Positions 7,975-56,084 of a stretch of 64,000 bases of DNA are shown piece after piece. Origin of the DNA: an uncultured Myxococcales bacterium (GTDB lineage Bacteria > Myxococcota_A > Polyangia > JAAYKL01). Under the pieces are notes generated by a model. That model was not told where the DNA came from. It saw only the letters and a list, made by a program, of their open reading frames with translations, and ran no database searches. The first letter of the stretch is position 1; the number at the start of each line of letters is the position of its first letter. The stretch is from positions 2,895 to 66,894 of the forward strand of contig CAYWLQ010000008.1 of NCBI GenBank assembly GCA_964458775.1, given 5' to 3'. Both the position numbers and the translations under genes were made by a program.

Positions 7975-10900
7975 TTACCGATTTCTTTTTTTTATAACAC
8001 CCAAACTATCCAGTTTTCGGTAGAACGTTCGTCTTGGAATACCTAGGATTTCTGCGGCCTTGCTGCGATTCCATTTGACTGATTCCAAAACAGATAGAAT
8101 TTTGCTGTCTTCTTCGCTTACAGATTTGGATGTGGTCGGTTTTGAATTAGGCTTTGGGACTTCACTGGATGAAATGAAAATCTCATCGGCTCTGATGGCT
8201 TTAGAGTCGTCTCCTATTGCTAATGCTCTGCGTATTGATTGCTCAAGCTCTCGTACATTTCCCGGCCAGTTGTGTTTTAGCAGCATTGCGGCAGCATCTT
8301 TGGAAAAACTTCTTGGTATCGAAGCGAATCTTACCGCTTCTCTTTCTACTATTCTTCCTGCTAAGGGTAAAATATCTTCTTTGCGCTTTCTTAAAGGCGG
8401 CAGCTCAATTGTTACGACCTGCAATCGATAAAGAAGGTCTTTTCGCAATCCGCCTTCGTTTGCCAGTTTATCTAGGGGAATCCTGGTGGATGCTATAATG
8501 CGCACATTGACACGCAGGTTTCGCTGCGAACCCACCGGGGAAAAGGTTCCGTCTTGCAGCACGCGTAACATGACTGTTTGCATTCTTGGAGACATGTCTC
8601 CTATTTCGTCCAAATATAGGGTCCCTCCGTCAGCAGCAGACAGCAAGCCCTGTCTTTCTGTGTCTGCTCCCGAAAAGGCGCCTTTTTCGTGGCCGAACAA
8701 CATGGATTCCACCAAGGTGTCCGGCATGCTGCCGCAGGAAACAGTTACAAAAGGTTTGTCCTTTAGATTGCTCTGTTCGTGAAGAACCCGTGCAAGCAAG
8801 TCTTTGCCTACGCCGCTCTCACCGGAAAAAATTACCGGAACATTTAAGTCTTTAACTCGCTCTACCGTCGTAAAGACCTTTCGCATTTCCGGCGATGTGC
8901 CGAAAACACCATGATAATCGCCTTCGCCTTCAATTTGCCGTCTTAGTCGTTCTAATCTTTCTCTGGCGGTTTTGAGATTCAAATCCCTTTGATTCAACTC
9001 TTCCAGTCTCTTTTCATAAGCTTCTTGTAGGGTTTTCCTCGCTGTCTGAAGCTCATCGGCTCTTTGTCGAAGTTCGTTTATTAAACGATTTTGTGAAAGA
9101 GCAATGGCAACCTGATTTGCAAAAGCGGAGAGTACTCGCAGATCTCTCTTATCAAATCGACCTCTTCGCAAACGGTTTTCGAGATACAAAACTCCTAGAG
9201 GGCTGCCTCTATAGGATACGGGAAGACATGCCACTGATTTAAGCTTAAGCTCATGAATTGACATAAACTCATTGAATCGGCTGTCCTGCATAGCATCCAC
9301 AGTTACTACCGGTTCGTTATCGAGAAATACAGATTCAGCTATAGAGCAACTGAATCGGTTTTCCGGTGCACCGGTATCAGCGTATTCACAACCGAAAGCT
9401 TTTCCGTCGGATACCGCTCTGATTTCTAAAACTGTTGATTCAGAACCTTCTGCCGGAAGTAAGATCATTCCTCGTTCCGCTCCGGTCAGCTCAATTGCAG
9501 AGCTGAGAATCATTTCTAATAAACGGTTAAGGTTGCTTTCTGAAAGTAGTTGTTTGTTTAAATCTAGAACTCGATAGAGAGCTTCTGCTTCAGTATCCGA
9601 TGTCTTGTCGGGATTATCGAAAAGCTCTGTTGATGAAAATTGATTGGAAGAGGATATTTCACTGAAAAGAGTTCTAACCTCGGATCTTCGCACATCCTGC
9701 CAAAATGCTGCGCGATGCTCATGGGATAAACCTGCACATAGACTTTCGAGAATATTTTCAGCTTCTCTTAAATGTTGCCGCATCAAAAAGACAGAGCCTT
9801 TTACTGACAGTCCTTTTGCGAGTGCCAAATGAGCCTGCCATGCAAAATCCTTGGCCCCTTGATATGTTTGATTTTCGCAGAGCGCCTCTAGCTTTTTCAG
9901 TCCCAGATCCAATTGTCCCTCAGCGATGAGCAGCATTCCCTCATGAAGAGCCAGTGACTCTTCAAACATTCTGCCCTCTTCCTCTCGATTTCTGCTTGAA
10001 GCTAGTTGAATGAGTTCCCTAGCTTTTATTATATCCTCTTTTTCCCCTCTTCTTAAAAGGCAGCCTGCGGTTTCTAATTCAATTTCACACACTATCGCAT
10101 AACGAGAGAGCGATATAAATCCCTTTCTGGCTTCAGCATAAAAACGAAGCGCATCTTCTGTTTCACCTCGGGCTGATGCAGAAGCTGCTGTATGAAATTG
10201 AGACCACAATCTTTGTTCGTCATACCCCAAAGATCTTGCTTCCGCTTCGGCCTGTTCCAGTATAAGACCGGCGCGCTCAAAACAGCCCATTTTAATCAGA
10301 GCGTATCCGTAGTTGTTTCTAACGTTGATTCGCATCAAGGGATTAACCGCTGAACGGGACAGCCGAACAGCCTGTTCATAGTGACGAAGAGATTCTGACC
10401 ATTCTTCCTGCCACAATTTCAGGTCACCCAAAACCAATTTGTCACGCATCAAATGAGGAATATCACCGAATTCAAAATGAAGGGCGGCTGCTCGCTCAAG
10501 CGATAGAGTAGCTTCTTTTAAGTTGCCTGATTTTTGATAAACCCAAGCCAAAATATCGATCGACAAAGCAACGGCTCTCATGTCTCCTGCCAATGCAGCA
10601 TCAGATTCTGCTTCCTTAGCAAACATCAGCGCATCATCTCTTCTGCCCTCTTTAACAGCAGACTTGGCGAGCATACCTAACAGATCGGCTCTAACGCGAT
10701 GTGCATTTGGAGCGTCCTTCAATCCTTCTTCTGCTAAAGCGATACATGATTCAGTGTTATGTTGTTGAAAGGCAATTTTGGCCAAAAGATACAGGATGCG
10801 AGCTCGATCCAATGGATTAACGGTCAAAGACAGAGCTTCACGGAGACACTTTTCAGCTTCATGTAAAGATTCTTTGTCAATATATATTCGCCCCAATAGT

Positions 10901-13161
10901 ATTAAGGCTTCTCGTTTAACAGAAAGATCACTACATAGTGCCGGCTTTGAAAGACACTGTTCGGCAGCAGTTAAATCACCTTGAGAAGACAGCACTCTTC
11001 CAAGCTCCAAAGCTAAGAGGAGATAGGTTTGTTCATTATGAGCAACTGCCTCCATCATTGCTGTCAGCAAATGCTGAGCTGCGTGTAATGCTCCGAGTCT
11101 GTAAAGGGATATTGCTACTGCTGTCCCGCGCTCTTCGATTTTTTTTTGGTCTTTGCATTTGGCTGCGTGATACAGCTGTTTTGCTTCATCGGATTCAAGT
11201 GAAAAAGCACGCCTGTGCATTTCTATAAGTCGATTCCAGTCAGCGGCAGCCAGAATTTCTTTGGCAAGAGGAAGAGTTGCTGCGCACCAGCGCGATGCCG
11301 AGCTTTTGAGCCTACCGCTTGCTGTTAAAGACGAAAGTGCGGAATCAACCGATATTGAATCTCTGCCCGAAACAATTGTGATCTCTTCAGCTGAAGCAGG
11401 CCGGTCAAGTACAGCAGCCGCTTCGAGTACGCATCTTTCGATTTCATTGAGGGTTAACAATCTTTCGCGCCAATATGTTTCCAGCTGTTTAGGCGGCCCC
11501 AGGCTTTCCAGTTTTGTCATACCTTCCGGGTTTTTAGAAATATCGTGGAGCAAGGTAGTTACAAAAAGCGGATTTCCTCCGGTATGGGCAAAAATTCGGG
11601 TTACCGCTTCCTGGTCGGCACTTCCAAGAAAACATTCTGTAATGTGGGATGTTTGTTCGAAAGATAAAAGCGGCATTACTAAAGTTTCGGCCGATCCCAA
11701 ATGTGTTTGCCATGAAAAAGATATCTCACACGAAGCTAACACAGCAAGAGGAACATCTCTTTCAACTGCCGCCGCCAAAACCCGCAATACGGCCAGAGTT
11801 TCAAATGATGCTTGTTCCAAACCGTCAATAATAAGCAAGAGCTTTGAACGTTTGGCAATGCCGATTAACAAATCTGAAGTTGATTTGGCTAATACATCCA
11901 GATGTGCATAATTTTTTTGGGGTTCACTAAGTGCTGATATTAACTGTTTTGTCCGCTGAATCGCCTCATCATCTTTTTCTAAAAAGAATACTGCCTGTTC
12001 GATTATATCTGCAAAGGGACGAAGAAGGCTGCCGCTACCGCCTGATTCGAGAACCGGTATATGTGCCAATTGAGCCCACCACTTGATACTGCGCAAAAGT
12101 GCGCTTTTCCCGGTTCCGGATTGACCTTCTACAACAACCAGAGGAGACAAATCCGATATTTGAAATCTTTTTTGCAAAGCTTCTTGCAGTTTAAAGAACT
12201 CACGATCACGACCTAATGACTCACTAAATACAGCACAGTCTGCAAAACGATCTTCATCGACAGCAGCGGTAAAAATTGATGTGAGAGCCGCTTCCGCTTC
12301 GACAGCCGTCGGAAATCGATGGTTAGGATTTCTTGATAATAATCTTCCTATAATACTTTGTAGGGCTTCTAGTGTTGAGGATTCCTCCTGTTTGACAATT
12401 AGGCGTTTTAATACCGGTAGACTCCGCTTTTCACCCAAATGTCCCTTAACAATTTCGGAAACCGACCCTTCAAAAGGAGGTGCTCCCGAAAGAATTTCAA
12501 ACAATGTAGCACCGAGGGAATATAGATCAGCTCTGGCATCGGCTCTTTTTTTTTCGATAACTTCAGGTGCCATATAGGGAACGGTTCCTCGCAGCTTGGC
12601 GTCTTCATTGTCTGATCTGACAAAAGAAAAATCTATTAGCTTTGCCACACCGTCCGAAGAACAAATAATGTTTCCCGGTTTAAGATCACCGTGAACCAAA
12701 CCTCGTCCGTGTAGGAGTTTTAGTGAACGGCATATTTCGACAAACAACCTTATCGCATCAGGAAGCCGCATATTTTGAGTTGCTGACATGAGGTCTTCAC
12801 CGGGAATATACTCCCTGGTAAAAAAAACTCTTCCGTCGAGAGACGCCCCAAAATCGTACACTTCAGAAAGCCTGGGATGTTTCAAACCTGCCAAGGCTTC
12901 AAATTCGTGTTTAAAAACCGAACGCCAGTTCTCGTCGGCTTTGGGTCTAAGAATCTTAAACACCAACATCTTGTTGTCCAGATAACGGTCCTGTACCAAA
13001 TGAACCGTTCCCTGTCCGCCCTCTCCCAGTCTTCTCAGATGCGTGTACCGAGTTTCCAGGCTTTGAAACAACTTCTCATCTGAAACGATCTCAAAATCTT
13101 TGTTTGGTGACTCATCGTGTGCCATAATGTGCACAGTGGCACAGCTGTAGTTTGGTGACAA
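7975..13161 (-). CDS. Giant multidomain signalling protein: Ser/Thr kinase - STAND/AAA NTPase - TPR array - GAF - sigma-54 AAA+ activator - Fis HTH
   Basis: 1728 aa. Kinase: LGEGGQGTV, VFKIL Lys, HGDLKPGNI catalytic loop (non-RD), DFS, APE. Walker A GQSGTGKS ~aa 345. Long TPR-like helical region. GAF-like segment. Second Walker A GESGVGKD, GAFSGA motif, C-terminal HTH (ILGIPRRTFYRKL). Confidence 0.85.
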   Translation of the reverse strand: MSPNYSCATVHIMAHDESPNKDFEIVSDEKLFQSLETRYTHLRRLGEGGQGTVHLVQDRYLDNKMLVFKILRPKADENWRSVFKHEFEALAGLKHPRLSEVYDFGASLDGRVFFTREYIPGEDLMSATQNMRLPDAIRLFVEICRSLKLLHGRGLVHGDLKPGNIICSSDGVAKLIDFSFVRSDNEDAKLRGTVPYMAPEVIEKKRADARADLYSLGATLFEILSGAPPFEGSVSEIVKGHLGEKRSLPVLKRLIVKQEESSTLEALQSIIGRLLSRNPNHRFPTAVEAEAALTSIFTAAVDEDRFADCAVFSESLGRDREFFKLQEALQKRFQISDLSPLVVVEGQSGTGKSALLRSIKWWAQLAHIPVLESGGSGSLLRPFADIIEQAVFFLEKDDEAIQRTKQLISALSEPQKNYAHLDVLAKSTSDLLIGIAKRSKLLLIIDGLEQASFETLAVLRVLAAAVERDVPLAVLASCEISFSWQTHLGSAETLVMPLLSFEQTSHITECFLGSADQEAVTRIFAHTGGNPLFVTTLLHDISKNPEGMTKLESLGPPKQLETYWRERLLTLNEIERCVLEAAAVLDRPASAEEITIVSGRDSISVDSALSSLTASGRLKSSASRWCAATLPLAKEILAAADWNRLIEMHRRAFSLESDEAKQLYHAAKCKDQKKIEERGTAVAISLYRLGALHAAQHLLTAMMEAVAHNEQTYLLLALELGRVLSSQGDLTAAEQCLSKPALCSDLSVKREALILLGRIYIDKESLHEAEKCLREALSLTVNPLDRARILYLLAKIAFQQHNTESCIALAEEGLKDAPNAHRVRADLLGMLAKSAVKEGRRDDALMFAKEAESDAALAGDMRAVALSIDILAWVYQKSGNLKEATLSLERAAALHFEFGDIPHLMRDKLVLGDLKLWQEEWSESLRHYEQAVRLSRSAVNPLMRINVRNNYGYALIKMGCFERAGLILEQAEAEARSLGYDEQRLWSQFHTAASASARGETEDALRFYAEARKGFISLSRYAIVCEIELETAGCLLRRGEKEDIIKARELIQLASSRNREEEGRMFEESLALHEGMLLIAEGQLDLGLKKLEALCENQTYQGAKDFAWQAHLALAKGLSVKGSVFLMRQHLREAENILESLCAGLSHEHRAAFWQDVRRSEVRTLFSEISSSNQFSSTELFDNPDKTSDTEAEALYRVLDLNKQLLSESNLNRLLEMILSSAIELTGAERGMILLPAEGSESTVLEIRAVSDGKAFGCEYADTGAPENRFSCSIAESVFLDNEPVVTVDAMQDSRFNEFMSIHELKLKSVACLPVSYRGSPLGVLYLENRLRRGRFDKRDLRVLSAFANQVAIALSQNRLINELRQRADELQTARKTLQEAYEKRLEELNQRDLNLKTARERLERLRRQIEGEGDYHGVFGTSPEMRKVFTTVERVKDLNVPVIFSGESGVGKDLLARVLHEQSNLKDKPFVTVSCGSMPDTLVESMLFGHEKGAFSGADTERQGLLSAADGGTLYLDEIGDMSPRMQTVMLRVLQDGTFSPVGSQRNLRVNVRIIASTRIPLDKLANEGGLRKDLLYRLQVVTIELPPLRKRKEDILPLAGRIVEREAVRFASIPRSFSKDAAAMLLKHNWPGNVRELEQSIRRALAIGDDSKAIRADEIFISSSEVPKPNSKPTTSKSVSEEDSKILSVLESVKWNRSKAAEILGIPRRTFYRKLDSLGVIKKRNR

Positions 13162-15850: not shown

Positions 15851-16758
15851 CTCTCCTTATTTAGCAAGTCCAGCATTTTTGCGTATCTGTTCCTTTCGTC
15901 TTCGTTTCCTAACCTTAAATAGTGCAGTTTCCCCATTTTTTCTTTAAGTTCAGGAACTCCCCTCATCGGATCCGTATTGCACAGCACCGCTAAAGGTTTG
16001 TCCTTGTGTGGTGTAGCGGCCGCCTCAAATAAGCTATTGGGATCGTGCCCGTCAGCAACAACTACTTCAGCTCCGAAATCTTTTAGTTTGTTCGCCAGCG
16101 GCCCCAATTCCATCACGGAGTTAACCATGCCGTCGCACTGTTGTCCGTTAACGTCAACGTATATTCCTACGGTATCCATTTTGTAATGGCTCATAAACTG
16201 AAACGCTTCCCAGACCATTCCGATTTGAAACTCGCCGTCCGACATAAAGACCCAGGTTTTTCCAGTCTCTTTGTTGATTCTTCTGCCTAAAGCCATACCG
16301 ATACCTTGGCTTAAGCCCTGCCCCAAAGATCCCGTCATTACTTCCATACCGGGCGAATGCTCAGCTCCGATCTGTTCCAATGTGTAGCCGTCAATATTGT
16401 AGTAGTCCATGGAGTCGGAAGACAGTCTGCCGGTCTGAATAAGAGCTGCGTATAGAACCAACGAATAATGAGTAGGCGACAGTATGAATCTGTCCAGATA
16501 GCTTTTGTGATCGCCGTTAAAAAGATATCCCGGTTTATAGTCTTTGTTATCCGCCGAAGGAACGCCAAGAAATTTACCGGCAGATATGGGCTTACTGACC
16601 TGCTCAAGATTCATTATGCCCCCGTACAGACAAGCAAAAATCTCAGCCGATGAACAGGCCTGGCTTAGGTAGCCTCCTCCATTTTTCAACACCTTTTCGA
16701 GAACACTTACTCTGATACCGTGAGCAATATCTTTTGCCTTTGATATTTTGTCTTCCAT
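15844..16758 (-). CDS. tkt: Transketolase, N-terminal thiamine-diphosphate-binding subunit of split enzyme
   Basis: 304 aa; TPP-binding GDG...motif region (FMSDGEFQIG), HxxxH-like active-site region; immediately precedes C-subunit. Confidence 0.85.
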   Translation of the reverse strand: MEDKISKAKDIAHGIRVSVLEKVLKNGGGYLSQACSSAEIFACLYGGIMNLEQVSKPISAGKFLGVPSADNKDYKPGYLFNGDHKSYLDRFILSPTHYSLVLYAALIQTGRLSSDSMDYYNIDGYTLEQIGAEHSPGMEVMTGSLGQGLSQGIGMALGRRINKETGKTWVFMSDGEFQIGMVWEAFQFMSHYKMDTVGIYVDVNGQQCDGMVNSVMELGPLANKLKDFGAEVVVADGHDPNSLFEAAATPHKDKPLAVLCNTDPMRGVPELKEKMGKLHYLRLGNEDERNRYAKMLDLLNKESC

Positions 16759-16861
16759 TGAGCCTCCATCGACCGAGTTGAAAGCAATTTATTTCTGCAA
16801 TACTTTCATCACGTCATCAAGAGATATCTCAATTTCTTTAATATGCTCTATATTGTGGTTT

Positions 16862-18406
16862 TTAAGGACCTCCAGGTATCGGCCATCCGTCTTCATCAAA
16901 GGGCATTTCTGTTATTCTAAGCACCGAGGCGCCGTTGCTCTGTCTGTATGCGTGATAAAAGTGATAAATTTTTTCATCTACTATAATGACCTCACTGTGG
17001 CCGGCTGCTGCATAGTTTACTCCGTCTCCTTGAACCATGAGAGTTCCTCCTCCGTTGAGCATCGGAGTTCCGCTTTTGTCATGATACGGACCCAATATAT
17101 TTTCGGAGCGACCTACCCTGACATTGTAGGTGCTGTTTGCACCTTGACAGCAGGTGCCCCACGAAACAAAGAGATAGTAATAACCGCATCGACGAAACAA
17201 CACAGGAGCCTCAATAGATGAGTTCCAGGCTAGACGAGTTAACTCATTCCCTACCCGATTTCCGTCTTGATCTAGCTCAAACGCCATTATTCCATCCCAA
17301 AAGCTGCCGAAAGCCAACCACGGAGTCCCGTCCTCATCGAGTTCCGCATCCGCATCTATTGCGTTGTATCGTTCATTACCCTGTGTGCAAATTACCGGTC
17401 CGTGATCTGTCCATGGGCCTGTTATGTATTCGGCCGTTAGATGTGTTATACACGAAATATTGTCTCCAAAAACTGCAGAAAAAGAAGAGTAAATATGATA
17501 TTTGCCGCCGAAAAAGATAATGTCCGGAGCCCACGGAAAATTAAACTCCTGTCCCTGAATACCGGCTAACCATTCGGTTGACCATGAGGGGTATCTGTTG
17601 CCGTAGATATTGCCTGCATTGGTCCAGTTTAACAGGTTGGTAGAACGTGCCATGGGAATATAGTTTCCCGTCCAAAGAACATAGAACGTATCTCCTTCTT
17701 GTATCATAGAGGGATCGTGAACTCCGAAATTGGCAACATTGAGAGGCTGAGGAGCTGTACCTTGATAAATGCCGATCTCGCAACGGTCATCCGCATCAGT
17801 GTCTGAGTCACTGTCAGTATCAGTATCTGTATCTGTATCTGCGTCAGCGTCGGTATCTGCATCGGTATCAGCGTCGGTATCTGCATCGGTATCTGCATCG
17901 GTATCCGCGTCGGTGTCTGCGTCGGTATCTGCATCGGTATCTGCATCGGTATCTGCATCGGTATCTGCATCGGTATCAGTGTCGGTATCAATGTCAGTAT
18001 CGGAATCTGTATCTGTATCGGTATCTGCGTCAGTGTCCGAATCCGCATCATTATCCGAGTCTGAGTCAGCATCGGCATCAGCATCGGCATCAGCATCGGC
18101 ATCAGTATCGGCATCAGCATCAGCGTCTGCATCGGTGTCAGCGTCAGTATCTGTGTCAGCATCTGAATCTGAATCTGCGTCCGTATCTGCGTCCGTATCT
18201 GCGTCCGTATCTGTGTCAGCATCATTATCCGAATCCGAGTCAGCATCAGCATCAGAGTCAGCGTCAGCGTCACTGTCCGCATCACTTTGACCGTTAGAGC
18301 TATCTGTGTCTATAAATTCATCTTGATTATTCTTGTCGGAAGAGCAAGCGGCAACAAGCACAAAAAAACATACAGGCATAGGCAATTTCATTATCGACTC
18401 CTTCAT
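16862..18406 (-). CDS. Lipoprotein glycoside hydrolase family 43 (arabinanase-like) with ~170-aa Asp-Thr/Asp-Ala/Asp-Ser repeat stalk
   Basis: Signal + lipobox (LVAACS); pure D-X dipeptide run; catalytic domain starts [16 protein letters not shown] (GH43 N-terminal Asp motif), 5-bladed propeller-like remainder. Confidence 0.7.
17790..18295. repeat. Tandem 6/12-bp DNA repeats (GATACC/GATGC-type) encoding D-T/D-A/D-S stalk
   Basis: Visible as gtcggtatctgcatcggtatc... iterations; generates spurious ORFs in all other frames. Confidence 0.85.
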
Positions 18407-18494
18407 TTCTTAGAGAAAATACTCTCTACCGGTAGTTTGGGTTGAAGTTAACTAATCCGTCATAGAAAAACATAAAAATAAAAAAAAATACTGA

Positions 18495-20057
18495 CTACTC
18501 GCCGGATGGCGATTCTATATCTGTAGAAAGAGCCATAGGAATGCCGAAATTAGGTGTGCCGTCTTCGTTCCACATTATTTTTTGTATGCGAGTGGTTCGA
18601 TCTGTCCAACAGCTTCCTCTGGGATTAGTTGTGGCATGATAGGCTATCCAGTGTTCAGTTCCGTCCGGCGACATAAAAAATCCGTTATGACCTGTGCCGT
18701 AAGCACCGTTTGCCTGGGAAAACACCGGTGTGGGGTGCTTGGTCCAAGAGGATGACATTGCAGGATTAAAACCGGTAAGCTCCAACATGCCCAGTTTATA
18801 TCCGGGATCGGCACACTGGCTTGCAGAGTAGATAACAAAAATGCGACCGTTTCTATAAAGAGGTTCGGGTCCTTCGTTAACCGAGTCGCTTCCCTCCATT
18901 TCCCATGGATATTCAGGCATTGAAAGAAGTGTTCCCGCTTGAGGATTTTTATTAGTCGTCGCGGTAGGCCCGGACATGGGAACAAGCCATATACGCTGTG
19001 TAGCTCCTGACCAAGCCGAATACATAAAATAGCGATTGCCTTCTACTTCCAACACACTTCCGTCAATAGCCCAGCCATTCATCATGGTTCCGACATAGGT
19101 ATAAGTTCCCATCGGACCGTCCGGATCGTCTTCCGAAGCTCCGCTCAACACATGTGTTTGCTGGGTACCGAGATCCTTTCCGTCTCCGGCAGTGTAGTAC
19201 ATATACCAGCGACCGTCCAGAAGATGAAATTCCGGTGCCCACATGTTGCAGCATCGAGAAGGTGTACTGTCAGACCAAATAATATCAGGACGTGCATCTT
19301 TGAGTTCTTGAATTGTTCGTCCCTTTTTCATGGTAAGAGTCGTGCCCCAGGTTGTCGCAGCCAAATAGTAATACCCCTTATAATAAAGCATCCAAGGATC
19401 AGATCCGTGTGATGCATTTAGAGGGTTGTTAAAGTAAGAGGGAGGCTTGGTTTCTGAATCAGTTTCAATATCAGAGTCAGTGTCGCTGTTTGTATCTGAA
19501 TCGCCGGCCGTGTCGGTATCCGTGTCTGTGTCGGTATCCGTGTCTGTGTCGGTATCTGTGTCCGTATCCGTGTCGGTATCCGTGTCGGTATCCGTATCTG
19601 TGTCCGTATCGGTATCTGTGTCCGTATCGGTATCTGTGTCCGTATCGGTATCCGTGTCGGTATCCGTATCCGTATCGGTGTCAATGTCCGTATCTGTATC
19701 GGAATCCGAGTCGCTATCTGCATCTGAGTCACTATCTGCATCCGAATCGCTGTCTGAATCTGTATCAGCATCACTATCTGAATCCGAATCTGTATCCGTA
19801 TCTGAATCTGAGTCCGTATCACTGTCTGCATCCGTGTCACTATCGGAATCCAAGTCGCTATCTGCATCTGCATCTGCATCAGTATCAGTATCAGTACTGC
19901 TAAAACCGCTGTCCGTATCATGGTTCATTTCATTGTCGACATTGTCAGAAGCACAAGAAGAGACAAAGACAACCATAACAGTGCAAAAACAAAACTCTTT
20001 AAAAAGCACACGAGAAACTGAAGTTTTCTTCAATACCAATTCTTCAGAAAAAAACAT
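18495..20057 (-). CDS. Secreted GH43-family glycoside hydrolase with ~150-aa Asp-Thr/Asp-Ser repeat stalk
   Basis: Signal peptide; DTDTDT... run (>40 consecutive DT); catalytic region begins [21 protein letters not shown], beta-propeller-like; second paralogous architecture to 16862-18406. Confidence 0.6.
19455..19905. repeat. Tandem 6-bp DNA repeats (GTATCC/GACAC-type) encoding D-T/D-S stalk
   Basis: gtgtcggtatccgtgtctgtgtcggtatc... iterations. Confidence 0.85.
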
Positions 20058-20266
20058 ATAAAATCTCCTTTAAATAATTTCAGCGAAATATGACGGTCAC
20101 AGTATTTCGAAAAAGAACCGCTTCAGTTGTTATTGGGATTAAACCTTAAAATTGTGTTTAAAAAAAAATTATGTGCTTGTACAACCACCCCCCCAAACGG
20201 ATCATGCTGATATAACTGATAATTGGGACCTTGAGACGATTGGCTTATTGAGGTTTTCTTAAGATA

Positions 20267-21481
20267 TTAGATAACCGATATAAGAGAACAGTCATAGTCA
20301 CCTATAAGAGAATCCTGTCGTAGAATTACGTAATTGGCTGCTTGCTCACATACAAAGTACATCGCATCTACTACATTCCCTTCTATTTGTTGGGGATTGA
20401 TACAAGATGCTGTCAGTATATCATTTTCAGCGATACCTCTAACTATGTATCCGTCGGAAGTAACTCCCTGAAAGTAGTATTCATACCAACTGAGGGATAA
20501 AATATCTTTGCCTTCTGCGATTGTAGAAGCTTTAGCGGATTCGGCATTTCCGACAACCACGGTACCGTTGTTGCCTGCTGCCACAAACTTTCCTTGGCGA
20601 TCTGATACAGCAACTAGGTCTTCAACCGTATCTACAGGAATGCGTTTCCACTCATTTTGTCGGTGAATATATAGTCCTCCCTTAGGCCCAACCGCCAGAT
20701 AACACCAGCCTTCTTCGCAACTCATAACCGTCATACGATTAACAGTTATATTTGCTTGAGGCGACAGCTCTTCTTTCCATTGTGTCCATTGAGAGCTTTT
20801 TGAGGAGCATTTTATTCCGTTTCCGTAAGCACAAATTTCATCTATTGAAGGCGTTTCCGTTCTTAGCAATCTGGCCAATCCGGTTAGTTTTGAATCTCTA
20901 TGTATTTCTTCAAATAGGCCTATATCATCTGTCAGTTTGTATATTGCGCTTTCAGTTCCGTCTGTTGCTAAAATAAAGGCCGAGTTGATCTTCTCAACCG
21001 GATCATAACGACAAATAATTGATTTCGGAGGCAGCGGAATACTAGCTTCAAATGACGATAGAATATTATTGTCTGCAAACGGACTCGTAAAAACAGCCGC
21101 AGCTCTATAACCGTTTTCCTCCTGGAGAGACAGCAGCAAACAATTTCCGCTCATAGCAACAAAACGGCTGTTTTCGAGAAGATTGTTTGCAAAAAAAACC
21201 GAATACGTTGAAACATCAGAACATTCCAAAGAAGTTAAAGTATCAACTAAATCTGAATTTGTATCAGCGTCTTCAACTGAGTCGGGCGCAGAATCTGTAT
21301 TTGTGTCGGAATCAAAGTGGGTTTGTGACTCAAAATCAGAACCGGTATCTGAATCCAAAGTTTTTTCTTCTGTACTTATATCAACGGGCAAAAAACCTTC
21401 TTGTAATCCCGGACCGCAGGACGGCAAAAAAATCAAGATTAGGCATACAATCGATACACATGATTTAAAAATGCACATCAT
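20267..21481 (-). CDS. Hypothetical acidic lipoprotein, last gene of ECF/caspase cassette
   Basis: Start moved to internal ATG overlapping the caspase-gene stop (AAATGATG); lipobox FLPSCG; Asp/Ser/Thr-rich linker then ~330-aa beta-rich domain with no recognisable motif. Confidence 0.5.
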   Translation of the reverse strand: MMCIFKSCVSIVCLILIFLPSCGPGLQEGFLPVDISTEEKTLDSDTGSDFESQTHFDSDTNTDSAPDSVEDADTNSDLVDTLTSLECSDVSTYSVFFANNLLENSRFVAMSGNCLLLSLQEENGYRAAAVFTSPFADNNILSSFEASIPLPPKSIICRYDPVEKINSAFILATDGTESAIYKLTDDIGLFEEIHRDSKLTGLARLLRTETPSIDEICAYGNGIKCSSKSSQWTQWKEELSPQANITVNRMTVMSCEEGWCYLAVGPKGGLYIHRQNEWKRIPVDTVEDLVAVSDRQGKFVAAGNNGTVVVGNAESAKASTIAEGKDILSLSWYEYYFQGVTSDGYIVRGIAENDILTASCINPQQIEGNVVDAMYFVCEQAANYVILRQDSLIGDYDCSLISVI

Positions 21482-23034
21482 TTGGACCAACGTCCTCCAA
21501 GGCTTAAAATTGCCATTGCATCCAATCTGTGTACCCAACCTTTTTCTTGTACTTGAAAAGTTCTTGCTCCTACTCCGCCGTCAATGCCTATAACAATTCC
21601 TCCAGTCGAAAACGAAATACCCAACATTCCTACATAGTCAAAACCTGAGGTATGTCGTCTTTTTCCTTCTCGTCTAGATTGAAACATATGCTCATATCCG
21701 GCTGCAATTTCAGCAATAAATGCCAGCTTTCTTACGGGCAAGTGATAACCTCCCCCGACCAGAAAACCGACATCGTTGTAACCGTCGGAAATACCTACAT
21801 CCTTTCCTGTTGACCAGTTTATGCGTGAAGATACATACCATTTGGAAGAAAATAGAGCACGATAAGCAGTTGATGCTCCGTAACCGGAAACAGCTCCTGC
21901 AAGAGGAAATTTGCGCCACATACCTCCTACTGAAACGGTGTGAACGAGGGACTTGGGCTCAAAGAAAATGCCGCCTTTATCTATTCCTGTTTCTAATTCT
22001 ATCGGATGAAAATCCAAGGCTTCTAACACTGCACTTTGTCGGTTTTCCAAATTCACGGTTGCGGATTTTACCCCTCCGTCATCGGATGTTAAAAAAATCC
22101 AATATTTTCCTGCGGTCAGGGTTACTTGAATTGTCTCCTCTGCAACAACGTCAGCTTCGGCAAACATCATATTTCGAGCTTCATCGACAACCATGATACG
22201 TCCCGATTCAGGAAGCTTTATAACCAAACGCGAATTAGTTTCGCCTGTTTTTGTAAGAACAATGTCACCCTTGCCCGCCAATTTAAATTCGTACATGGGA
22301 TGCTGAGCTCCGCCGACTGTCACACTGGTTCTGGCTAGAGTTCGACGAAAAGCATAATCATATGCCTCCGAAAGAGTAACCTTCCCATCATTAGAAACGT
22401 CACCGGCTCCCCTTAATGCTGAGATCAGATAGTGGGTAAAAAAAGCACCTCTAATTTCTTTTGATTCCTGAGAAAGTTCACTTTCTGAACTTGAAGTAAC
22501 AATTGCATAACCGCTTGAGGAAATTTCATCTTTTACGAGAATATCAAATCCGCGTCCTTTACTACCGCCTTTCATTGATACAAGCTTGCCGCTTCTGCAT
22601 GAATCCATAAATGCAAGCCTCACATCTGCAGAAGATGAACGCATATAATTGAGCACCTCAGCCATCGGCAAAGAAGAATCGCCCAGCTCCAAAACATCGC
22701 CGTCAGCATGTCCGGAATAATACACAATAAAAAGAGTCTTTACAGAAGCATCTCGCGCATGAGCCTTAACTCTTTTTTCCATGCGTGATAATTCAGAAGA
22801 AACCTCAGGTGCGCTTCTACCCAGCAATAGAGCGGCATTTTCGGGTTTAATACCGCCGAGTTCTATCATGGTTTGATAAAATTTTTCTGCGTCCTTCTCG
22901 GCAAAATTAAGCCCTCTTGTCGGTTCATGACCTATATTATTGCCGATAACAAGGGCATACTTTAAGGTTTCCGCAAAACCTATTGCAGGACTAAACAGCA
23001 GAGAAGTAACCACAATAGAGTATATTATTCTCAT
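21478..23034 (-). CDS. Secreted caspase-like peptidase C14 domain protein with C-terminal beta-rich (putative outer-membrane beta-barrel) domain
   Basis: Sec signal (AIGFA/ET). YALVIGNN start of caspase fold, His region YYSGHADGD, Cys region AFMDSCRSG, p10-like GAFFTHYLISALRGAGD...DGKVTLSEAYDY. C-terminal ~200 aa of alternating-hydrophobic strands rich in Gly/aromatic residues. Confidence 0.7.
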   Translation of the reverse strand: MRIIYSIVVTSLLFSPAIGFAETLKYALVIGNNIGHEPTRGLNFAEKDAEKFYQTMIELGGIKPENAALLLGRSAPEVSSELSRMEKRVKAHARDASVKTLFIVYYSGHADGDVLELGDSSLPMAEVLNYMRSSSADVRLAFMDSCRSGKLVSMKGGSKGRGFDILVKDEISSSGYAIVTSSSESELSQESKEIRGAFFTHYLISALRGAGDVSNDGKVTLSEAYDYAFRRTLARTSVTVGGAQHPMYEFKLAGKGDIVLTKTGETNSRLVIKLPESGRIMVVDEARNMMFAEADVVAEETIQVTLTAGKYWIFLTSDDGGVKSATVNLENRQSAVLEALDFHPIELETGIDKGGIFFEPKSLVHTVSVGGMWRKFPLAGAVSGYGASTAYRALFSSKWYVSSRINWSTGKDVGISDGYNDVGFLVGGGYHLPVRKLAFIAEIAAGYEHMFQSRREGKRRHTSGFDYVGMLGISFSTGGIVIGIDGGVGARTFQVQEKGWVHRLDAMAILSLGGRWSK

Positions 23035-23780
23035 TGAGTCGGATTGCTCTCCTTCATCACAGTAATGGAGCGCACGATAAGTTCCTTCCCTTGCTTTGGA
23101 ATAAAAGCATCTTTTCTATTAAACGGCTTTGAAGAAAAGACACCTGTGTAGGTCTCTTCACCAAGAACATCATCCAATAAAATGCTTCCGTCCATTATAT
23201 GAATACCGGCAGCTTCTATTCTTAAAGGTTCAACGTCCTGTTCAGGTGAGTTATCAGGATAAAACGGTGACAGTTTTCCGCTTTTATCCTTTGAAAAGAT
23301 TGTCAAGTATCCGGGTTCTCCAACTGTCACTATAAACATAATAGAATCGCCTTCTTTTAGTGAGGTTCCGTCCTTTACTTCAAACTGCTTGCCTTGTCGA
23401 TTTCCTATGATCTTCATAGAAAATTCGCCTTTAAAAGCTATTCGGTCGCTGTCTTGTGAATTCTCAGTTCTATCTATACCGAAAAATAAGAATAAGAGGG
23501 CAGCTGCTGCTGCGGCAAATAGACCTGCCAATGCAAAGGATTTAAAAGCCGTACTTCGTGTTTTGCTTTGACCAAATTTTTGATCAATCTCAGAGTTAAG
23601 TCTTCTGATTCGATTGTCTTCGTCTTTTGAAAACTCTCTAATATTTGTATCCATCTCTTCGGACAACTTGGTACAAGCAGCACACAATTCTAAATGACAT
23701 CTAATATTCTCTGCATCTAATTGCTCCAAATCATTTGCCTTGTAACGTGACATCAGTAGGTGCGAAGGACAATCTGTCAT
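23031..23780 (-). CDS. Zinc-finger (Hx3Cx2C) anti-sigma factor, single TM, periplasmic beta-rich sensor domain
   Basis: CHLELCAAC motif in N-terminal cytoplasmic part, TM AFKSFALAGLFAAAAAALLFLFFGI, ~130-aa C-terminal extracytoplasmic domain; sits directly after ECF sigma gene; 4-nt overlap with caspase gene. Confidence 0.7.
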   Translation of the reverse strand: MTDCPSHLLMSRYKANDLEQLDAENIRCHLELCAACTKLSEEMDTNIREFSKDEDNRIRRLNSEIDQKFGQSKTRSTAFKSFALAGLFAAAAAALLFLFFGIDRTENSQDSDRIAFKGEFSMKIIGNRQGKQFEVKDGTSLKEGDSIMFIVTVGEPGYLTIFSKDKSGKLSPFYPDNSPEQDVEPLRIEAAGIHIMDGSILLDDVLGEETYTGVFSSKPFNRKDAFIPKQGKELIVRSITVMKESNPTQ

Positions 23781-23783
23781 GTT

Positions 23784-24320
23784 TCAATTCTCCTCAAAAT
23801 GATGTCCGACCTGCTTTCTAAGTGCAGTCAAACGTTTTACAACAGCTCTTCTCGATATACCGAGCATTGAAGCCATTTCTTCCTGGCTCATTCGCGACAA
23901 ATAATGCCCCACAAGGATTTCAAAGCTGCGCTCGTCCATATCCTTAACCAAGCTTTCCAGTACACGCCGAGCGTGGAGCACTTCGGTCGGATGCGTTAAG
24001 TCAGTCGGAACCATGCTTATATCTTGAGAAAGTACAAACCCTTTACGTCTTCTCGTTCGCATGATTTTAAAACAGATATTTGAAGCGATTCGATAAAGCC
24101 ACGGCAAGCGGCTGTCGCCGTAAGTAAATGAATCATATGCTCCGTAGGCGCTCAAAAAAACCTCCTGAACAGCGTCCTCTGCCTCTGCTTTGTCTCCCAA
24201 GAGCCTGAGGCAATGGTCATAAAGCACGCCGGAAAACTTGCGGTGAAGGGCAGTTATCTCCCGCTTTTTGATTTCCGACCTCGCCATCTGTTCAATCCCG
24301 GATAAAACCATCTTGAGCAC
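23784..24320 (-). CDS. ECF-type RNA polymerase sigma-70 factor
   Basis: Region 2 (AEDAVQEVFLSAY...) and region 4 HTH (LSRMSQEEMASMLGISRRAVVKRL); true start may be an internal Met (annotated 5' end overlaps prmC). Confidence 0.8.
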   Translation of the reverse strand: MLKMVLSGIEQMARSEIKKREITALHRKFSGVLYDHCLRLLGDKAEAEDAVQEVFLSAYGAYDSFTYGDSRLPWLYRIASNICFKIMRTRRRKGFVLSQDISMVPTDLTHPTEVLHARRVLESLVKDMDERSFEILVGHYLSRMSQEEMASMLGISRRAVVKRLTALRKQVGHHFEEN

Positions 24321-25203
24321 CTTGTTCTGACGGTAGGCTATCTTTTTTTAAAACCGCTACTCGCAGACTTCCGCTTAAGTCAGATAATCCAATTCCCTTG
24401 ATAGTGAAAAAGCGAGGAGCAATATTGTCCAACAAATCGCTAAATTGAAAAGGATCCAGTTCCATCAATAAAAAGCCTCCCGGATTTAAAAAGTCAGATG
24501 CCTGTTCTATAATGCGACGCGCCAAATCCAAACCGTCTTTTCCTCCTGACAGGGCAAGTTGAGGTTCAAAAAGAACTTCTTTTTGCAAATTAGGTATGTC
24601 TTCGTCAGGTATATATGGGGGATTGGCAGTAATTATGTCATAATGCATAGATGCCACAGGTTCAAACAAATCTCCTTTAAACACGTTTACTCTTTCTTTC
24701 ATGCCGAGTCTTTCGATATTTCTTTTTGCAACCAAAACAGCATCGTGAGAAATATCGACGGCGTCTACTTTCCATTTCGTTTTTTCTGATGCCAGAGCTG
24801 CCGCAACACATCCGGTGCCGGTACACAAATCAAGAGCCGTGCCATAATCTCCCATCCTGGAAATGGCTGCTTCCACAAGAGTTTCCGTATCCGGTCTTGG
24901 AATTAATACACTTGGGGAAACCTCAAAAGACATAGACCAGAACTCTTTAGTTCCGGTAATATAAGCCAAAGGTTCCCCTTTTCTCCTTCTTATAATTGTT
25001 TGCCTAAAAGATGCCAGTTCGGCCTCTTCGAGCGGCCTATCAAAATTGGTATAGAGAAAGATTCTCTCTGTATTTAACAAATAAGCCAGCAGAAGTTCAG
25101 CATCCAATCTGGCCGAAGCAATTCCCCTACTTTTGAAATCTTCCGTCGCCCAGTTTAGTACCTTCCCAATTGTCCAATCAGTCATGTTCAGAACATTAGG
25201 CAA
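24292..25203 (-). CDS. prmC: Release factor glutamine N5-methyltransferase PrmC (HemK)
   Basis: Class I MTase GxGxG (LDLCTGTGC), NPPY motif (ITANPPYIP), 303 aa. Confidence 0.85.
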   Translation of the reverse strand: MPNVLNMTDWTIGKVLNWATEDFKSRGIASARLDAELLLAYLLNTERIFLYTNFDRPLEEAELASFRQTIIRRRKGEPLAYITGTKEFWSMSFEVSPSVLIPRPDTETLVEAAISRMGDYGTALDLCTGTGCVAAALASEKTKWKVDAVDISHDAVLVAKRNIERLGMKERVNVFKGDLFEPVASMHYDIITANPPYIPDEDIPNLQKEVLFEPQLALSGGKDGLDLARRIIEQASDFLNPGGFLLMELDPFQFSDLLDNIAPRFFTIKGIGLSDLSGSLRVAVLKKDSLPSEQGAQDGFIRD

Positions 25204-47028: not shown

Positions 47029-47937
47029 TTATATTCGAGAGAGACTTTTAAAGAAATCCCACATTCCCTGAGGACCAAAGCTGGGCCAGTTGTGTCCGTC
47101 TTGATATACGCACCAGCGTACAGGATAAGCAGCATTGCATTCAGCGTAATCCACACACTCGGCCGGTGAGGACGGAGAAGAAGAGGATAGGTTGCAGCTG
47201 TTGGATTCGCCCCAATGATCCCTGCTGCCTTCTCCGCTTGTGATAGCTACCGTTTCATCATTTTCGCCGTGGGCTATCCAAGCCGCAACTTGTCCGGTAC
47301 ATCCGTTGCCTCCCCATACCATAGGACCTCCGCCGGATACCGGAGCTATGCCTCGCAATATATCGCCTCTTAGACATCCAAGCATATTTGTAAAGAAACC
47401 GCCGGAGCTGTGTCCGGTTGCAAATATTCTTGAGGAGTCAATGCATAGTACAGTCTGCAAATAGGTTAGGAGTTCGTCAAAAAAAGGAACATCAACTTCA
47501 GTATTCCATGCTGTAGGATCTCCGATTGCATCAGGGTGTACTACAATAACTTCATCCCCCATTGCGGAAAGCAAATTGCCGTAAAATGCGCTTCTAAAAA
47601 GCGATCCGCTTGTACCCATCCCGTGAAATCCAAATATTATGGGATAAGGCGTGTCAGGATTGTAGTTACTAGGAACATCCAATACATAGGTTCGCGTTCC
47701 TTGTGACGCTTCGAGACTGTAAGCTCCGTTTGAGGGAGGTACAAGACCGCATCCCGGTGACAAGTCAGCATCTGCGTCGGTATCTGTATCAGAATCCGCA
47801 TCGGTATCAGTGTCAGCATCAGTGCCTTTGTCAGTGTTTGAATCCGTATTTATCAAATCATTATCTTTTTCCCCACCAGAGCACGATGTGCTCAGAAACG
47901 AACACATCAACAGGCTAAATAAAACAAACTGTTTCAT
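47029..47937 (-). CDS. Secreted lipoprotein alpha/beta-hydrolase esterase (PHB-depolymerase/feruloyl-esterase family) with short D-T/D-A repeat linker
   Basis: Lipobox [27 protein letters not shown] linker, nucleophile elbow GHSSGG, HG oxyanion region (FGFHGMG). Confidence 0.7.
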   Translation of the reverse strand: MKQFVLFSLLMCSFLSTSCSGGEKDNDLINTDSNTDKGTDADTDTDADSDTDTDADADLSPGCGLVPPSNGAYSLEASQGTRTYVLDVPSNYNPDTPYPIIFGFHGMGTSGSLFRSAFYGNLLSAMGDEVIVVHPDAIGDPTAWNTEVDVPFFDELLTYLQTVLCIDSSRIFATGHSSGGFFTNMLGCLRGDILRGIAPVSGGGPMVWGGNGCTGQVAAWIAHGENDETVAITSGEGSRDHWGESNSCNLSSSSPSSPAECVDYAECNAAYPVRWCVYQDGHNWPSFGPQGMWDFFKSLSRI

Positions 47938-55265: not shown

Positions 55266-56084
55266 GTGAAAAACGGCATCCGAACAGCACAGACTGACAG
55301 AGGAATAGATATGCCGCACCCAAGAATTGTATGTATATCTCATGACGCAGTTTCGATGTTATCTGAGCTCGATGCTTTGAGTTATTTAGTGGGAAGACCT
55401 TCCGGAATTTGCGACGAAAAATTAAAAAGTGTTCCTTCTATCGGAGGATACGGTTGTCCTGACCTTGCAAAGATAACTTCCCTGTCGCCTGACTATGTTA
55501 TCGGCTATTCAGATTTTCACGCGTCGCTGATCGCTGAATTGGTTTCTAAACATATATCAACAATTGCTCTTAATCATAGCAACATCGAGGGAATATATTC
55601 GGCTTTGCGTTTGATAGGAGGCTTGGTTTCTAAATATAGAGAGGCAGAAGAACTAATTGACCGGATACAAAGTCGGGTGTCTGCTGTTGAAACAGATAAA
55701 CTCACCAATTGCCCTTCAGTGTATTTTGAGGAATGGCCGAATCCCGTTGCTTGTGCGCCTGAATGGGTTTCTCAAATGATTGAGTCGGCTGGAGGTAAAG
55801 ATATTTTTGCACAAAAAGCTAAAGAGTCAGCTTTTAAAAACCGGTTTATATGTATTGAAGAAGTTGTTCAGCAAAACCCCGACCTAATTTTTGTATCTTG
55901 GTGCGGCAAGCCTTTTATACCTGAAACCCTAATCGACAGGCCGGGCTGGAAAGATCTTAGAGCAGTAAAAAACAAATGCGTATTTGAACTGCAAGGAGAT
56001 ATTGTTCTGCAACCCGGACCGCGTTTTGTAGAAGGCTTGGAGTTTATGCATCAAATTATCAAACAAGAAACTGGGAGAATGTGA
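55266..56084 (+). CDS. BtuF/FecB-like class III substrate-binding protein lacking a signal peptide
   Basis: PRIVCISHDAVSMLSELDAL...PDYVIGYS pattern of cobalamin/siderophore SBPs; N-terminus hydrophilic (no signal/lipobox); alternative start at MPHPRIV (55311). Confidence 0.6.
   Translation: MKNGIRTAQTDRGIDMPHPRIVCISHDAVSMLSELDALSYLVGRPSGICDEKLKSVPSIGGYGCPDLAKITSLSPDYVIGYSDFHASLIAELVSKHISTIALNHSNIEGIYSALRLIGGLVSKYREAEELIDRIQSRVSAVETDKLTNCPSVYFEEWPNPVACAPEWVSQMIESAGGKDIFAQKAKESAFKNRFICIEEVVQQNPDLIFVSWCGKPFIPETLIDRPGWKDLRAVKNKCVFELQGDIVLQPGPRFVEGLEFMHQIIKQETGRM

Follow-up and report, generated by a model that had tools for sequence, protein, structure and literature searches.

Long Asp-X dipeptide repeats as probable tethers of a predicted arabinan-degrading pair of lipoproteins from an uncultured member of the Myxococcota

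Introduction

Half of Escherichia coli's outer-membrane lipoproteins have N-terminal disordered linkers of more than 22 residues; these linkers are needed for Lol sorting, and it is their length and disorder that matter rather than their sequence (bioRxiv 10.1101/2021.01.05.425367). In Saccharophagus degradans, 31 carbohydrases are anchored by way of a lipobox, and polyserine linkers are used (PMC2386152). The SD repeats of staphylococcal adhesins are modified with N-acetylglucosamine (GlcNAc) by SdgA and SdgB (PMC3794999, PMC8561734), and the surface-export signal of Bacteroidota lipoproteins is a short acidic run by Cys+1, of the form K-(D/E)2, SDDDD or SDDFE (PMC5080379). Here we describe two adjacent genes, GH43_A and GH43_B, in a stretch of 64,000 nucleotides from an uncultured Myxococcales bacterium (assembly GCA_964458775.1, contig CAYWLQ010000008.1, positions 2,895 to 66,894), which as a whole is called the window below. 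Each gene encodes a predicted lipoprotein in which a very long run of Asp-X dipeptides, X being mostly Thr, Ala or Ser, lies between the lipobox and a catalytic domain of glycoside hydrolase family 43 (GH43).

An earlier note on this DNA had drawn attention to these stalks. We consider it probable that the two proteins are an arabinan endo/exo pair on a lipid-anchored, disordered polyanionic tether, which serves as a long flexible spacer and is a variant of the tether found in the family at large. The GH43 arabinan enzymes and the lipoprotein tether are ordinary components, and the novelty is confined to the Asp-X composition. In the literature searched we found no paper describing a strictly alternating polyanionic Asp-[Thr/Ala/Ser] lipoprotein tether; such a tether appears to be undescribed, as does its broad use among uncultured Myxococcota.

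Results

The two genes are separated by a gap of 88 bp and occupy the positions that the earlier note gave them (Table 1). That both encode GH43 enzymes was borne out at several levels. Pfam profile PF04616 (Glyco_hydro_43, cut-off 32.2 bits) was covered almost fully by each protein, with E = 2e-47 and 162.3 bits for GH43_A and E = 6.7e-52 and 177 bits for GH43_B. The catalytic domain of GH43_A matched the endo-1,5-alpha-L-arabinanases 6b7k, 1wl7, 3cu9, 1uv4 and 1gyd in the PDB (E = 1e-45 to 1e-58); the best matches (6b7k, 1wl7 and 3cu9) were at E of about 1e-57, and all of the top ones were arabinanases. Its HDPS, NAIDAD and IEAP motifs aligned with the catalytic residues D27, D147 and E201 of AbnB/ABN-TS, which were confirmed by the names of mutants. 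An AlphaFold2 model, which covers GH43_A only and was built from an alignment of 45 sequences, had a predicted local distance difference test score (pLDDT) of 86-98 across aa 210-514 and contained the five-bladed beta-propeller fold of GH43. The top Foldseek matches of this predicted model were GH43 arabinanases, with target-normalised TM-scores of 0.82-0.89. Among the NCBIfam models the AbnA equivalog NF053747 scored best, yet its 250.5 bits fall short of the cut-off of 480, so that GH43_A is not placed in that equivalog. Because the AbnA model scored best and all of the top PDB matches were arabinanases, GH43_A is likely to be of the endo-arabinanase activity class.

GH43_B matched the Streptomyces exo-1,5-alpha-L-arabinofuranosidase SaAraf43A (3akf), as well as 3k1u, 5m8b and 9nxj, at E = 1e-41 to 1e-50 (9nxj, 3k1u and 3akf at 1e-46 to 1e-50). 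We take 3akf, 3k1u and 5m8b to be members of GH43 subfamily 26, the SaAraf43A type, of which GH43_B is a candidate member. The SDPW, IDGS and NEGP motifs of GH43_B aligned with conserved acidic positions in 3akf, 3k1u and 9nxj, presumably the Asp base, the Asp pKa modulator and the Glu acid of GH43. More distant homologs of GH43_B bear the AbfB domain PF05270, which we take to be CBM42 and to be present in SaAraf43A too. The closest relatives of GH43_A and GH43_B are just 76-77% identical to them. To judge from these sequence matches, the two proteins would be a cooperating endo/exo pair for arabinan degradation, both activities being predicted.

Between the lipobox and the catalytic domain, both proteins contain the long (D-X)n linker described in the earlier note, with 83 strictly alternating units in GH43_A and 64 in GH43_B. 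The X positions are occupied by A36 T31 S12 N2 I1 in GH43_A and by T38 S17 A7 L1 I1 in GH43_B. In 20 shuffles of the window, D-X runs of at least four units occurred 0-1 times per shuffle, and the real arrays are far beyond chance. The pure stalk length of 150-170 residues given earlier holds for GH43_A (166 aa); the strict array of GH43_B is 128 aa long, and a length in that range (164 aa) is reached there only when the whole distance from Cys to the catalytic domain is counted. A DT run of more than 40 repeats, which had also been claimed, does not exist in the window, where the longest unbroken DT run is 29 units (GH43_B, aa 126-183).

Counted from Cys+1 to the catalytic domain, the segment of GH43_A comprises 186 residues with 88 Asp, 1 Glu and 1 Lys (net charge -88), and that of GH43_B comprises 164 residues with 73 Asp, 2 Glu and no Lys (net charge -75). 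At 0.36 nm per residue, the contour lengths are about 67 and 59 nm, respectively. The end-to-end distance of a neutral random coil would be about 10 nm for such stalks, an estimate from standard scaling, and charge repulsion should expand it. In the AlphaFold2 model of GH43_A, residues 1-207 have pLDDT values of 41-53 and lack secondary structure, and the stalk of this protein is predicted to be disordered.

The earlier note had likened the stalks to staphylococcal SD repeats. The likeness holds for composition, in that the stalks match the SD-repeat regions of the NCBIfam SdrC, SdrD, ClfA and ClfB models at E = 1e-20 to 1e-29; it extends neither to the architecture nor to family membership. 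The matches are confined to the repeat region and are purely compositional, reaching 73-101 bits against cut-offs of 999-2500 (10-30 times below). The architecture is inverted, the stalk being N-terminal after the lipobox, and an A domain and LPXTG are absent; GH43_A ends in ...DGWPIPGGP and GH43_B in ...DIESPSGE. An SD-repeat-like stalk, in which Thr and Ser would be O-glycosylated as by SdgA/SdgB to form a stiff, protease-resistant polyanion, has to be weighed. Such SD repeats are known substrates of SdgA/SdgB (PMC3794999, PMC8561734), and Thr and Ser together fill 43 of the 83 X positions of GH43_A and 55 of the 64 of GH43_B. On the other hand, 36 of the 83 X positions of GH43_A are Ala, which is not O-glycosylatable, and many related stalks are DA-rich. 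Glycosylation would also need to happen in the periplasm, orthologs do the same job with Gly-rich linkers (see below), and no glycosyltransferase Pfam match was found among the scanned window open reading frames (ORFs) of at least 150 aa. We regard a glycosylated stalk of the staphylococcal kind as unlikely.

At the DNA level the stalks had been described as 6/12-bp tandem arrays. They are not clean repeats: the periods reported by Tandem Repeats Finder (TRF) were 12 and 18, at no more than 77-88% matches, and the longest perfect tandem stretch was 56 nt in GH43_A (12-bp unit, 4.7 copies) and 59 nt in GH43_B (18-bp unit, 3.3 copies). Over both arrays Asp is encoded by GAT 98 times and by GAC 49 times, while Thr, Ala and Ser use all of their codons. 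When the arrays were divided into hexamers, positions 1-2 were GA in 147 of 147 units, position 3 was only T or C, so that Asp was never turned into Glu, and position 6 was any of the four bases at about equal frequency. Of 29 distinct hexamer types, 25 encode D-[T/A/S], the expectation for neutral one-step mutants being 32% (P about 5e-9). The Asp-X alternation is held by selection at the peptide level, and the synonymous sites are scrambled. From the hexamer-type statistics we conclude that the arrays contain some duplications that are local and recent, next to old units that have diverged at synonymous sites and been kept Asp-small. ORFs with S-V/S-A repeats that overlie the arrays on the plus strand (17769-18290 and 19447-20061) were taken as mirror-frame by-products.

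The same scrambling bears on the suggestion that the arrays are hypervariable and prone to assembly collapse. It leaves each 55-mer of both arrays unique within the window, and collapse is therefore unlikely here; only 6-7% of the 31-mers are repeated. The suggestion fits other genomes better. A scan of one genome per Genome Taxonomy Database (GTDB) species with the pattern (GAYNCN)12 gave at least 117 loci, and in at least 24 of those listed no more than 150 nt separate the array from a contig end. A DT array of this kind is also present on L123, the contig of the closest relative of the window's TopA protein, and an independent short-read contig (L124) that is 100% identical to L123 over 14.8 kb stops 87 nt into that array.

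We also considered whether the stalks are artefact or neutral junk, that is, assembly errors or recent, functionless slippage expansions tolerated by a dispensable linker. The local perfect tandem blocks, the frequent position of comparable arrays at contig ends and the break within the array of the relative would all fit this explanation, as would the finding that the stalks of the closest orthologs, P0003 and P0121, are not alignable with those of the window. Both arrays are nevertheless in frame and internal to the 64-kb window, and neither the uniqueness of every 55-mer nor the invariance of Asp amid scrambled synonymous sites is expected of such sequence. As the same architecture also recurs in dozens of independent assemblies, we consider an artefactual or neutral origin highly improbable.

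A low-complexity tether turned out to be a general trait of the enzyme family. A lipobox could be recognised in 72 of the 120 best homologs of GH43_A, and every one of these 72 has a low-complexity linker of 44-195 aa (median 107). The linker is Gly-rich in 51, rich in S/T/A/P in 15, mixed in 5 and Asp-rich in a single case (P0003, 73% identical). One homolog (P0002) has a catalytic domain 75% identical to that of GH43_A and carries a 165-residue Gly-rich linker in place of Asp-X. Similarly, the 26 lipobox-bearing homologs of GH43_B that were scored have linkers of 54-228 aa, of which 20 are Gly-rich and one is Asp-rich. The latter belongs to the closest GH43_B homolog (P0121), whose catalytic domain is 77% identical and whose imperfect Asp-rich linker is 129 residues long. 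Where identity to GH43_B is lower than about 55%, in homologs from Chloroflexota and others, the signal peptide is plain and a linker is absent. Since the orthologs are mostly Gly-rich at similar length, we conclude that linker length and disorder are conserved across the family and that linker chemistry is not. The tether itself would thus be a general property of Polyangia-type orthologs, nearly all of which have a lipobox followed by a low-complexity tether of 44-228 aa, usually Gly-rich. The endo and exo orthologs are adjacent in two other loci (L121, 700-3284; L122, 1711-4295), where their order is opposite to that of the window and both tethers are Gly-rich; contigs of matching length suggest endo/exo adjacency in four further ortholog pairs.

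The distribution of the Asp-X composition is different. At least 49 of the at least 117 loci listed from the pattern scan come from genomes labelled Myxococcota, Myxococcales, Polyangia, Kofleriaceae, Sandaracinaceae or 'Deltaproteobacteria bacterium'. Among the matches listed, 53 ORFs combine a signal peptide, a lipobox Cys, a short spacer and an Asp-X array, and 43 of the 53 are from Myxococcota-type loci. The stalks of these lipoproteins are 24-130 residues long, and several such genes often lie side by side at one locus (L041, L086, L108 and L089). The passenger domains include CBM6, VWA, PL11 rhamnogalacturonan lyase, pectinesterase, GH2, GH43, PETase-like, GDSL, cyclophilin, amidohydrolase and nuclease/phosphatase. 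At one locus (L001), the gene beside that of the Asp-rich GH43_A ortholog encodes a lipoprotein in which two Asp-X stalks accompany a GDSL esterase domain. The array of L123 mentioned above (20849-21310) belongs to a 1172-residue FG-GAP lipoprotein whose stalk of 154 residues contains 41 unbroken DT units. In other phyla the same DNA pattern marks, for instance, very large DA arrays inside adhesin-like proteins (1052 residues in Phyllobacterium; also in Sphingomonas and Variovorax), and in Firmicutes it marks C-terminal SD/DA/DT regions, including a staphylococcal Sdr-type protein (L110). Asp-X composition thus appears, from these sequences, to be lineage-specific, with the same lineage placing it on many unrelated lipoproteins. 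GC content was rejected as the cause of Asp-X rather than Gly-rich linkers, as the Asp-X lipoproteins among the matches listed are in loci of 41-74% GC.

These surveys also bear on a cation-dependent device, in which the Asp array would bind Ca2+ or Mg2+, either bridging to lipopolysaccharide (LPS), pectate or mineral or acting as a cation-tuned spring. The charge pattern rather than the length would then be the selected property. The strong peptide-level selection for Asp, never Glu, in alternation with small residues speaks for this explanation, as does a net charge of -75 to -88, and the stalks are on pectic side-chain enzymes in the window and on PL11 and pectinesterase in relatives. It is less easily squared with the uncharged Gly-rich linkers of the majority of orthologs or with the very diverse passenger domains on which the stalk sits. 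Moreover, a recognisable Ca-binding motif is absent, in that TSP_3 and similar Pfam families had no match in the window proteins; for GH43_A and GH43_B, no TSP_3 match was obtained at E <= 0.01. Calcium binding by Sdr proteins belongs to the B repeats and not to the SD region. A cation-dependent role of the stalk is therefore, in our view, unlikely.

Lipoprotein signals were assessed with a PS51257-type core, [LVI..][ASTVI..][GAS]C at residues 15-35. This core was found in GH43_A (Cys21), in GH43_B (Cys35) and in a feruloyl-esterase-like protein encoded elsewhere in the window (Cys19). The earlier note's view that these are lipoprotein-type signals in a Gram-negative-type cell is supported at the sequence level by the core, in a diderm Myxococcota context indicated by a secretin gene in the window and by the TopA relatives. 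GH43_B is preceded by AAAGGAG 7 nt upstream of its ATG; the protein as started has no K/R in its first 7 residues, and alternative TTG/GTG starts are present. The mature N-termini would be CSSDKNN, CASDNVD and CSGGEKD, with Ser or Ala at position +2. Lys at +2 is an inner-membrane retention signal in lipoprotein sorting of Myxococcus, and it was found once among the 53 Asp-X lipoproteins. No conserved sorting motif right after the Cys was found among these 53, in which small or polar residues are favoured.

In all three strictly stalked lipoproteins of the window, exactly 20 residues separate the lipobox Cys from the first strict Asp-X unit. The three spacers share a motif, x-[D/N]-T-D-S, located 11-15 residues past the Cys, and relatives have similar T-[D/E]-[S/T]-G strings. 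The shared motif may mark a stalk that begins in degenerate form, or it may serve in sorting.

An acidic segment after a lipidated Cys could also act as a surface-export signal that directs crossing of the outer membrane, as in Bacteroidota. The window proteins do begin with C-S-S-D, C-A-S-D and C-S-G-G-E, and the stalks are on enzymes that need extracellular polymers, three other candidate lipoproteins of the window having none. The Bacteroidota signal, however, is only about 5 residues long and position-critical at +2 to +6 (PMC5080379), and its motif is not present at these positions in CSSDKNN, CASDNVD or CSGGEKD. The strict array starts 20 residues past the Cys in the window (median 15 in the 53 relatives) with no consensus after the Cys, a 5-residue signal would leave 128-166 residues unexplained, and the Gly-rich orthologs have no acidic residues near the Cys. 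The machinery for this export in Bacteroidota is not known from Myxococcota. We therefore think it quite improbable that the stalk is an export signal of this type.

Shorter stalks had been proposed for two other window proteins. The feruloyl-esterase-like lipoprotein does carry one, of 10 units. Its closest structure is the feruloyl esterase 8jh8 (E = 1.1e-38), and it matches an NCBIfam PHA-depolymerase/esterase family below the cut-off. The proposal did not hold for the protein encoded at 20267-21481, which has only a loose acidic stretch and a non-canonical lipobox. No strict D-X run of at least four units was found in it, its candidate lipobox has Pro at -2 and failed the pattern, and Pfam and NCBIfam gave no match. 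Stalks are absent from the other candidate lipoproteins of the window, encoded at 1988-2635, 52257-53915 and 56081-57031 (the last a periplasmic binding protein), and within the window stalks go with enzymes acting on polymers. As to the plant-cell-wall theme of the earlier note (arabinan/xylan plus esterase), the arabinan endo/exo pair and the feruloyl-esterase-like protein agree with it, while nothing specific to xylan was found.

Table 1. Coordinates of the stalked lipoprotein genes, their parts and the neighbouring acidic protein gene
Feature	Position in window	Strand	Description and basis
GH43_A	16862..18406	minus	514 aa; lipoprotein precursor, endo-1,5-alpha-L-arabinanase-like GH43; ORF, Pfam, PDB, AlphaFold2/Foldseek
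GH43_A catalytic domain, aa 208-514	16865..17785	minus	predicted five-bladed beta-propeller; pLDDT 86-98; catalytic motifs
GH43_A (Asp-X)83 array, aa 42-207	17786..18283	minus	166 aa; net charge about -84; predicted disordered; TRF period 12, 32.6 copies, 78% matches
GH43_A pre-stalk spacer	18284..18343	minus	20 residues; read from sequence
GH43_A signal peptide and lipobox	18344..18406	minus	...VAAC, Cys21; PS51257-type core match; Lys within first 7 residues
GH43_B	18495..20057	minus	520 aa; lipoprotein precursor, exo-1,5-alpha-L-arabinofuranosidase-like GH43; ORF, Pfam, PDB
GH43_B catalytic domain, aa 200-520	18498..19460	minus	SDPW, IDGS and NEGP aligned with conserved acidic positions of 3akf/3k1u/9nxj
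GH43_B degenerate stalk tail	19461..19508	minus	16 residues; sequence
GH43_B (Asp-X)64 array, aa 56-183	19509..19892	minus	128 aa; TRF period 18, 9.4 copies, 88% matches
GH43_B pre-stalk spacer	19893..19952	minus	20 residues; read from sequence
GH43_B signal peptide and lipobox	19953..20057	minus	...VSSC, Cys35; PS51257-type core match
Secreted protein with loose acidic region	20267..21481	minus	D/S/T-rich N-terminal region, aa 62-96 (nt 21251-21355); sequence
Feruloyl-esterase-like lipoprotein	47029..47937	minus	(Asp-X)10 stalk, aa 40-59 (array nt 47761-47820); lipobox core matches, Cys19
Esterase pre-stalk spacer	47821..47880	minus	20 residues; read from sequence

The minus strand of 21478-24320, immediately upstream of the genes for the GH43 enzymes and the acidic secreted protein, encodes an extracytoplasmic function (ECF) sigma factor together with a DUF4384 protein and a caspase-like Peptidase_C14 protein; their genes have the same orientation and overlapping ends. 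These genes and the GH43 enzymes may form one regulatory or secretory cluster. A promoter and terminator scan of 16500-24600 gave counts no higher than in shuffles. Elsewhere in the window, the minus strand of 7975-13161 encodes a 1728-aa fusion of a Ser/Thr protein kinase, a STAND-like AAA ATPase, TPR, GAF, a sigma-54 activator and HTH_8. Two further repeats were noted. A 15-bp tandem repeat on the plus strand (36388-36502, 7.7 copies, 94% matches) lies inside infB and encodes (PVEKP)n-like units in the N-terminal part of IF-2, and 9/18/36-bp repeats at 61536-61657 (gene 61348-63948, minus) give a TPR protein a long Glu/Asp-rich acidic C-terminal tail. A generally acidic, halophile-like proteome was rejected, the median isoelectric point being 6.1 and D+E roughly equalling K+R in cytoplasmic proteins.

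The window has a GC content of about 43% and includes genes for Ser/Thr kinases, sigma-54 activators, a secretin, an ECF sigma factor and rubrerythrin, together with a nusA-infB-rbfA-truB block. Its TopA protein (26382-28670) is 83% identical to a metagenome protein of the Joint Genome Institute and 66-71% identical to proteins from metagenome-assembled genomes (MAGs) labelled Myxococcota, Myxococcales, Proteobacteria or Deltaproteobacteria. On the strength of these TopA relatives we assign the source to an uncultured diderm of the Myxococcota; as it carries rubrerythrin, the host is probably anaerobic. The contig of the 83% relative (L123) keeps dprA-topA-trmFO, and the GH43 pair is absent from the surroundings of its topA. 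Its GC content is 55.6%, a large gap from that of the window for such a level of protein identity. In catalytic-domain searches of a large protein collection, both GH43 proteins of the window were absent from the best matches, whereas its TopA was there at 100%; gene calling or filtering may remove proteins whose repeats are very pure.

Discussion

The features described above are consistent with a mechanism in which the stalk serves as a spacer. Because the signal peptide ends in a lipobox, the mature protein should start with a lipidated Cys in a membrane of the diderm cell. With Ser or Ala rather than Lys at +2, the lipoproteins would be sent to the outer membrane, transport to which a disordered N-terminal linker would suit, by analogy with E. 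coli. As the substrate is polymeric, the enzymes would presumably be exposed on the cell surface or on vesicles. In this arrangement the stalk would serve as a long tether, flexible and self-repelling, with a contour of about 60-67 nm that holds the enzyme off the membrane and gives the propeller reach into polymeric arabinan. The precedents of the E. coli linkers and of Saccharophagus degradans make a flexible tether an economical explanation.

Several points weigh against our preferred explanation or the data behind it. If any disordered spacer serves, as the Gly-rich orthologs imply, the strict Asp-small selection lacks an explanation, and this selection points to a charge-dependent role of an unspecified kind. 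The test for selection counts hexamer types as independent events, the array copy numbers in the window are as assembled, the taxonomic tally is drawn from a sample of loci whose order is not known, and 'Deltaproteobacteria bacterium' labels are imprecise. With the first of these points in mind, we also considered a proposal in which the Asp-small segment, under selection and used across the lineage, is a module for displaying the lipoproteins of uncultured Myxococcota and has a function that depends on the charge pattern. It could be a cation-tuned spring through LPS or exopolysaccharide or onto vesicles, a signal for crossing of the outer membrane, or a scaffold for O-glycosylation in the periplasm. 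The invariance of Asp in 147 units amid scrambled synonymous sites, the recurrence on unrelated passenger domains by the dozen and a pre-stalk spacer constant at 20 residues keep this proposal alive, and we hold it as a tentative, somewhat doubtful alternative to the flexible tether.

The endo/exo pair and the feruloyl-esterase-like protein suggest that the host feeds on pectic arabinan with cell-attached enzymes. As endo- and exo-acting arabinan enzymes occur together with a feruloyl-esterase-like esterase, the set looks like a kit for feruloylated pectic arabinan. More generally, one ortholog family with tethers of similar length and different chemistry (Gly-rich, S/T/A/P-rich and Asp-X) is a natural experiment on what a tether requires, and the strict Asp-small selection in one lineage means that composition matters there. 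If the polyanion does control surface exposure or extension, it would offer a handle on lipoprotein display in diderms other than Bacteroidota. Asp-X arrays are also frequent contig break points, and gene callers may drop or mis-call them; stalked lipoproteins are for these reasons probably under-counted in MAG-based surveys of carbohydrate-active enzymes.

The closest counterparts of the window tethers are the Gly-rich and S/T/A/P-rich tethers of the orthologs, which share the enzyme families (catalytic domains 57-77% identical), lipobox, position, length and gene pairing. The Gly-rich ones are uncharged (GGxTGG-like), whereas the window tethers alternate strictly between Asp and a small residue and have a net charge of -75 to -88. 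The linkers of RcsF, Pal and NlpD in E. coli are likewise disordered segments directly past the lipidated Cys and sorting residues, but they are tens of residues long and non-repetitive, in contrast to the dipeptide-periodic, polyanionic segments of 164-186 residues in the window. In Saccharophagus degradans and Cellvibrio, hydrolases of plant and algal polysaccharides are also lipid-tethered to the outer membrane and have homopolymer-like flexible linkers; there the linkers are poly-Ser, lie mostly between modules and occur in Gammaproteobacteria, while those of the window are Asp-X, connect the anchor to the catalytic domain and occur in Myxococcota. Bacteroidota surface lipoproteins resemble the window proteins in being glycan-degrading with acidic residues after the lipidated Cys (PMC5080379), but their signal occupies about 5 residues at +2 to +6 and the window array 128-166 residues from +21. 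Finally, the SD stalks of staphylococcal Clf and Sdr proteins are also long dipeptide repeats, with Asp at every second position, between an anchor and a functional domain. They lie at the C-terminus beside the LPXTG wall anchor of a Gram-positive cell and contain Ser almost exclusively, whereas the stalks of the window are N-terminal after a lipobox and have Thr and Ala in excess of Ser.

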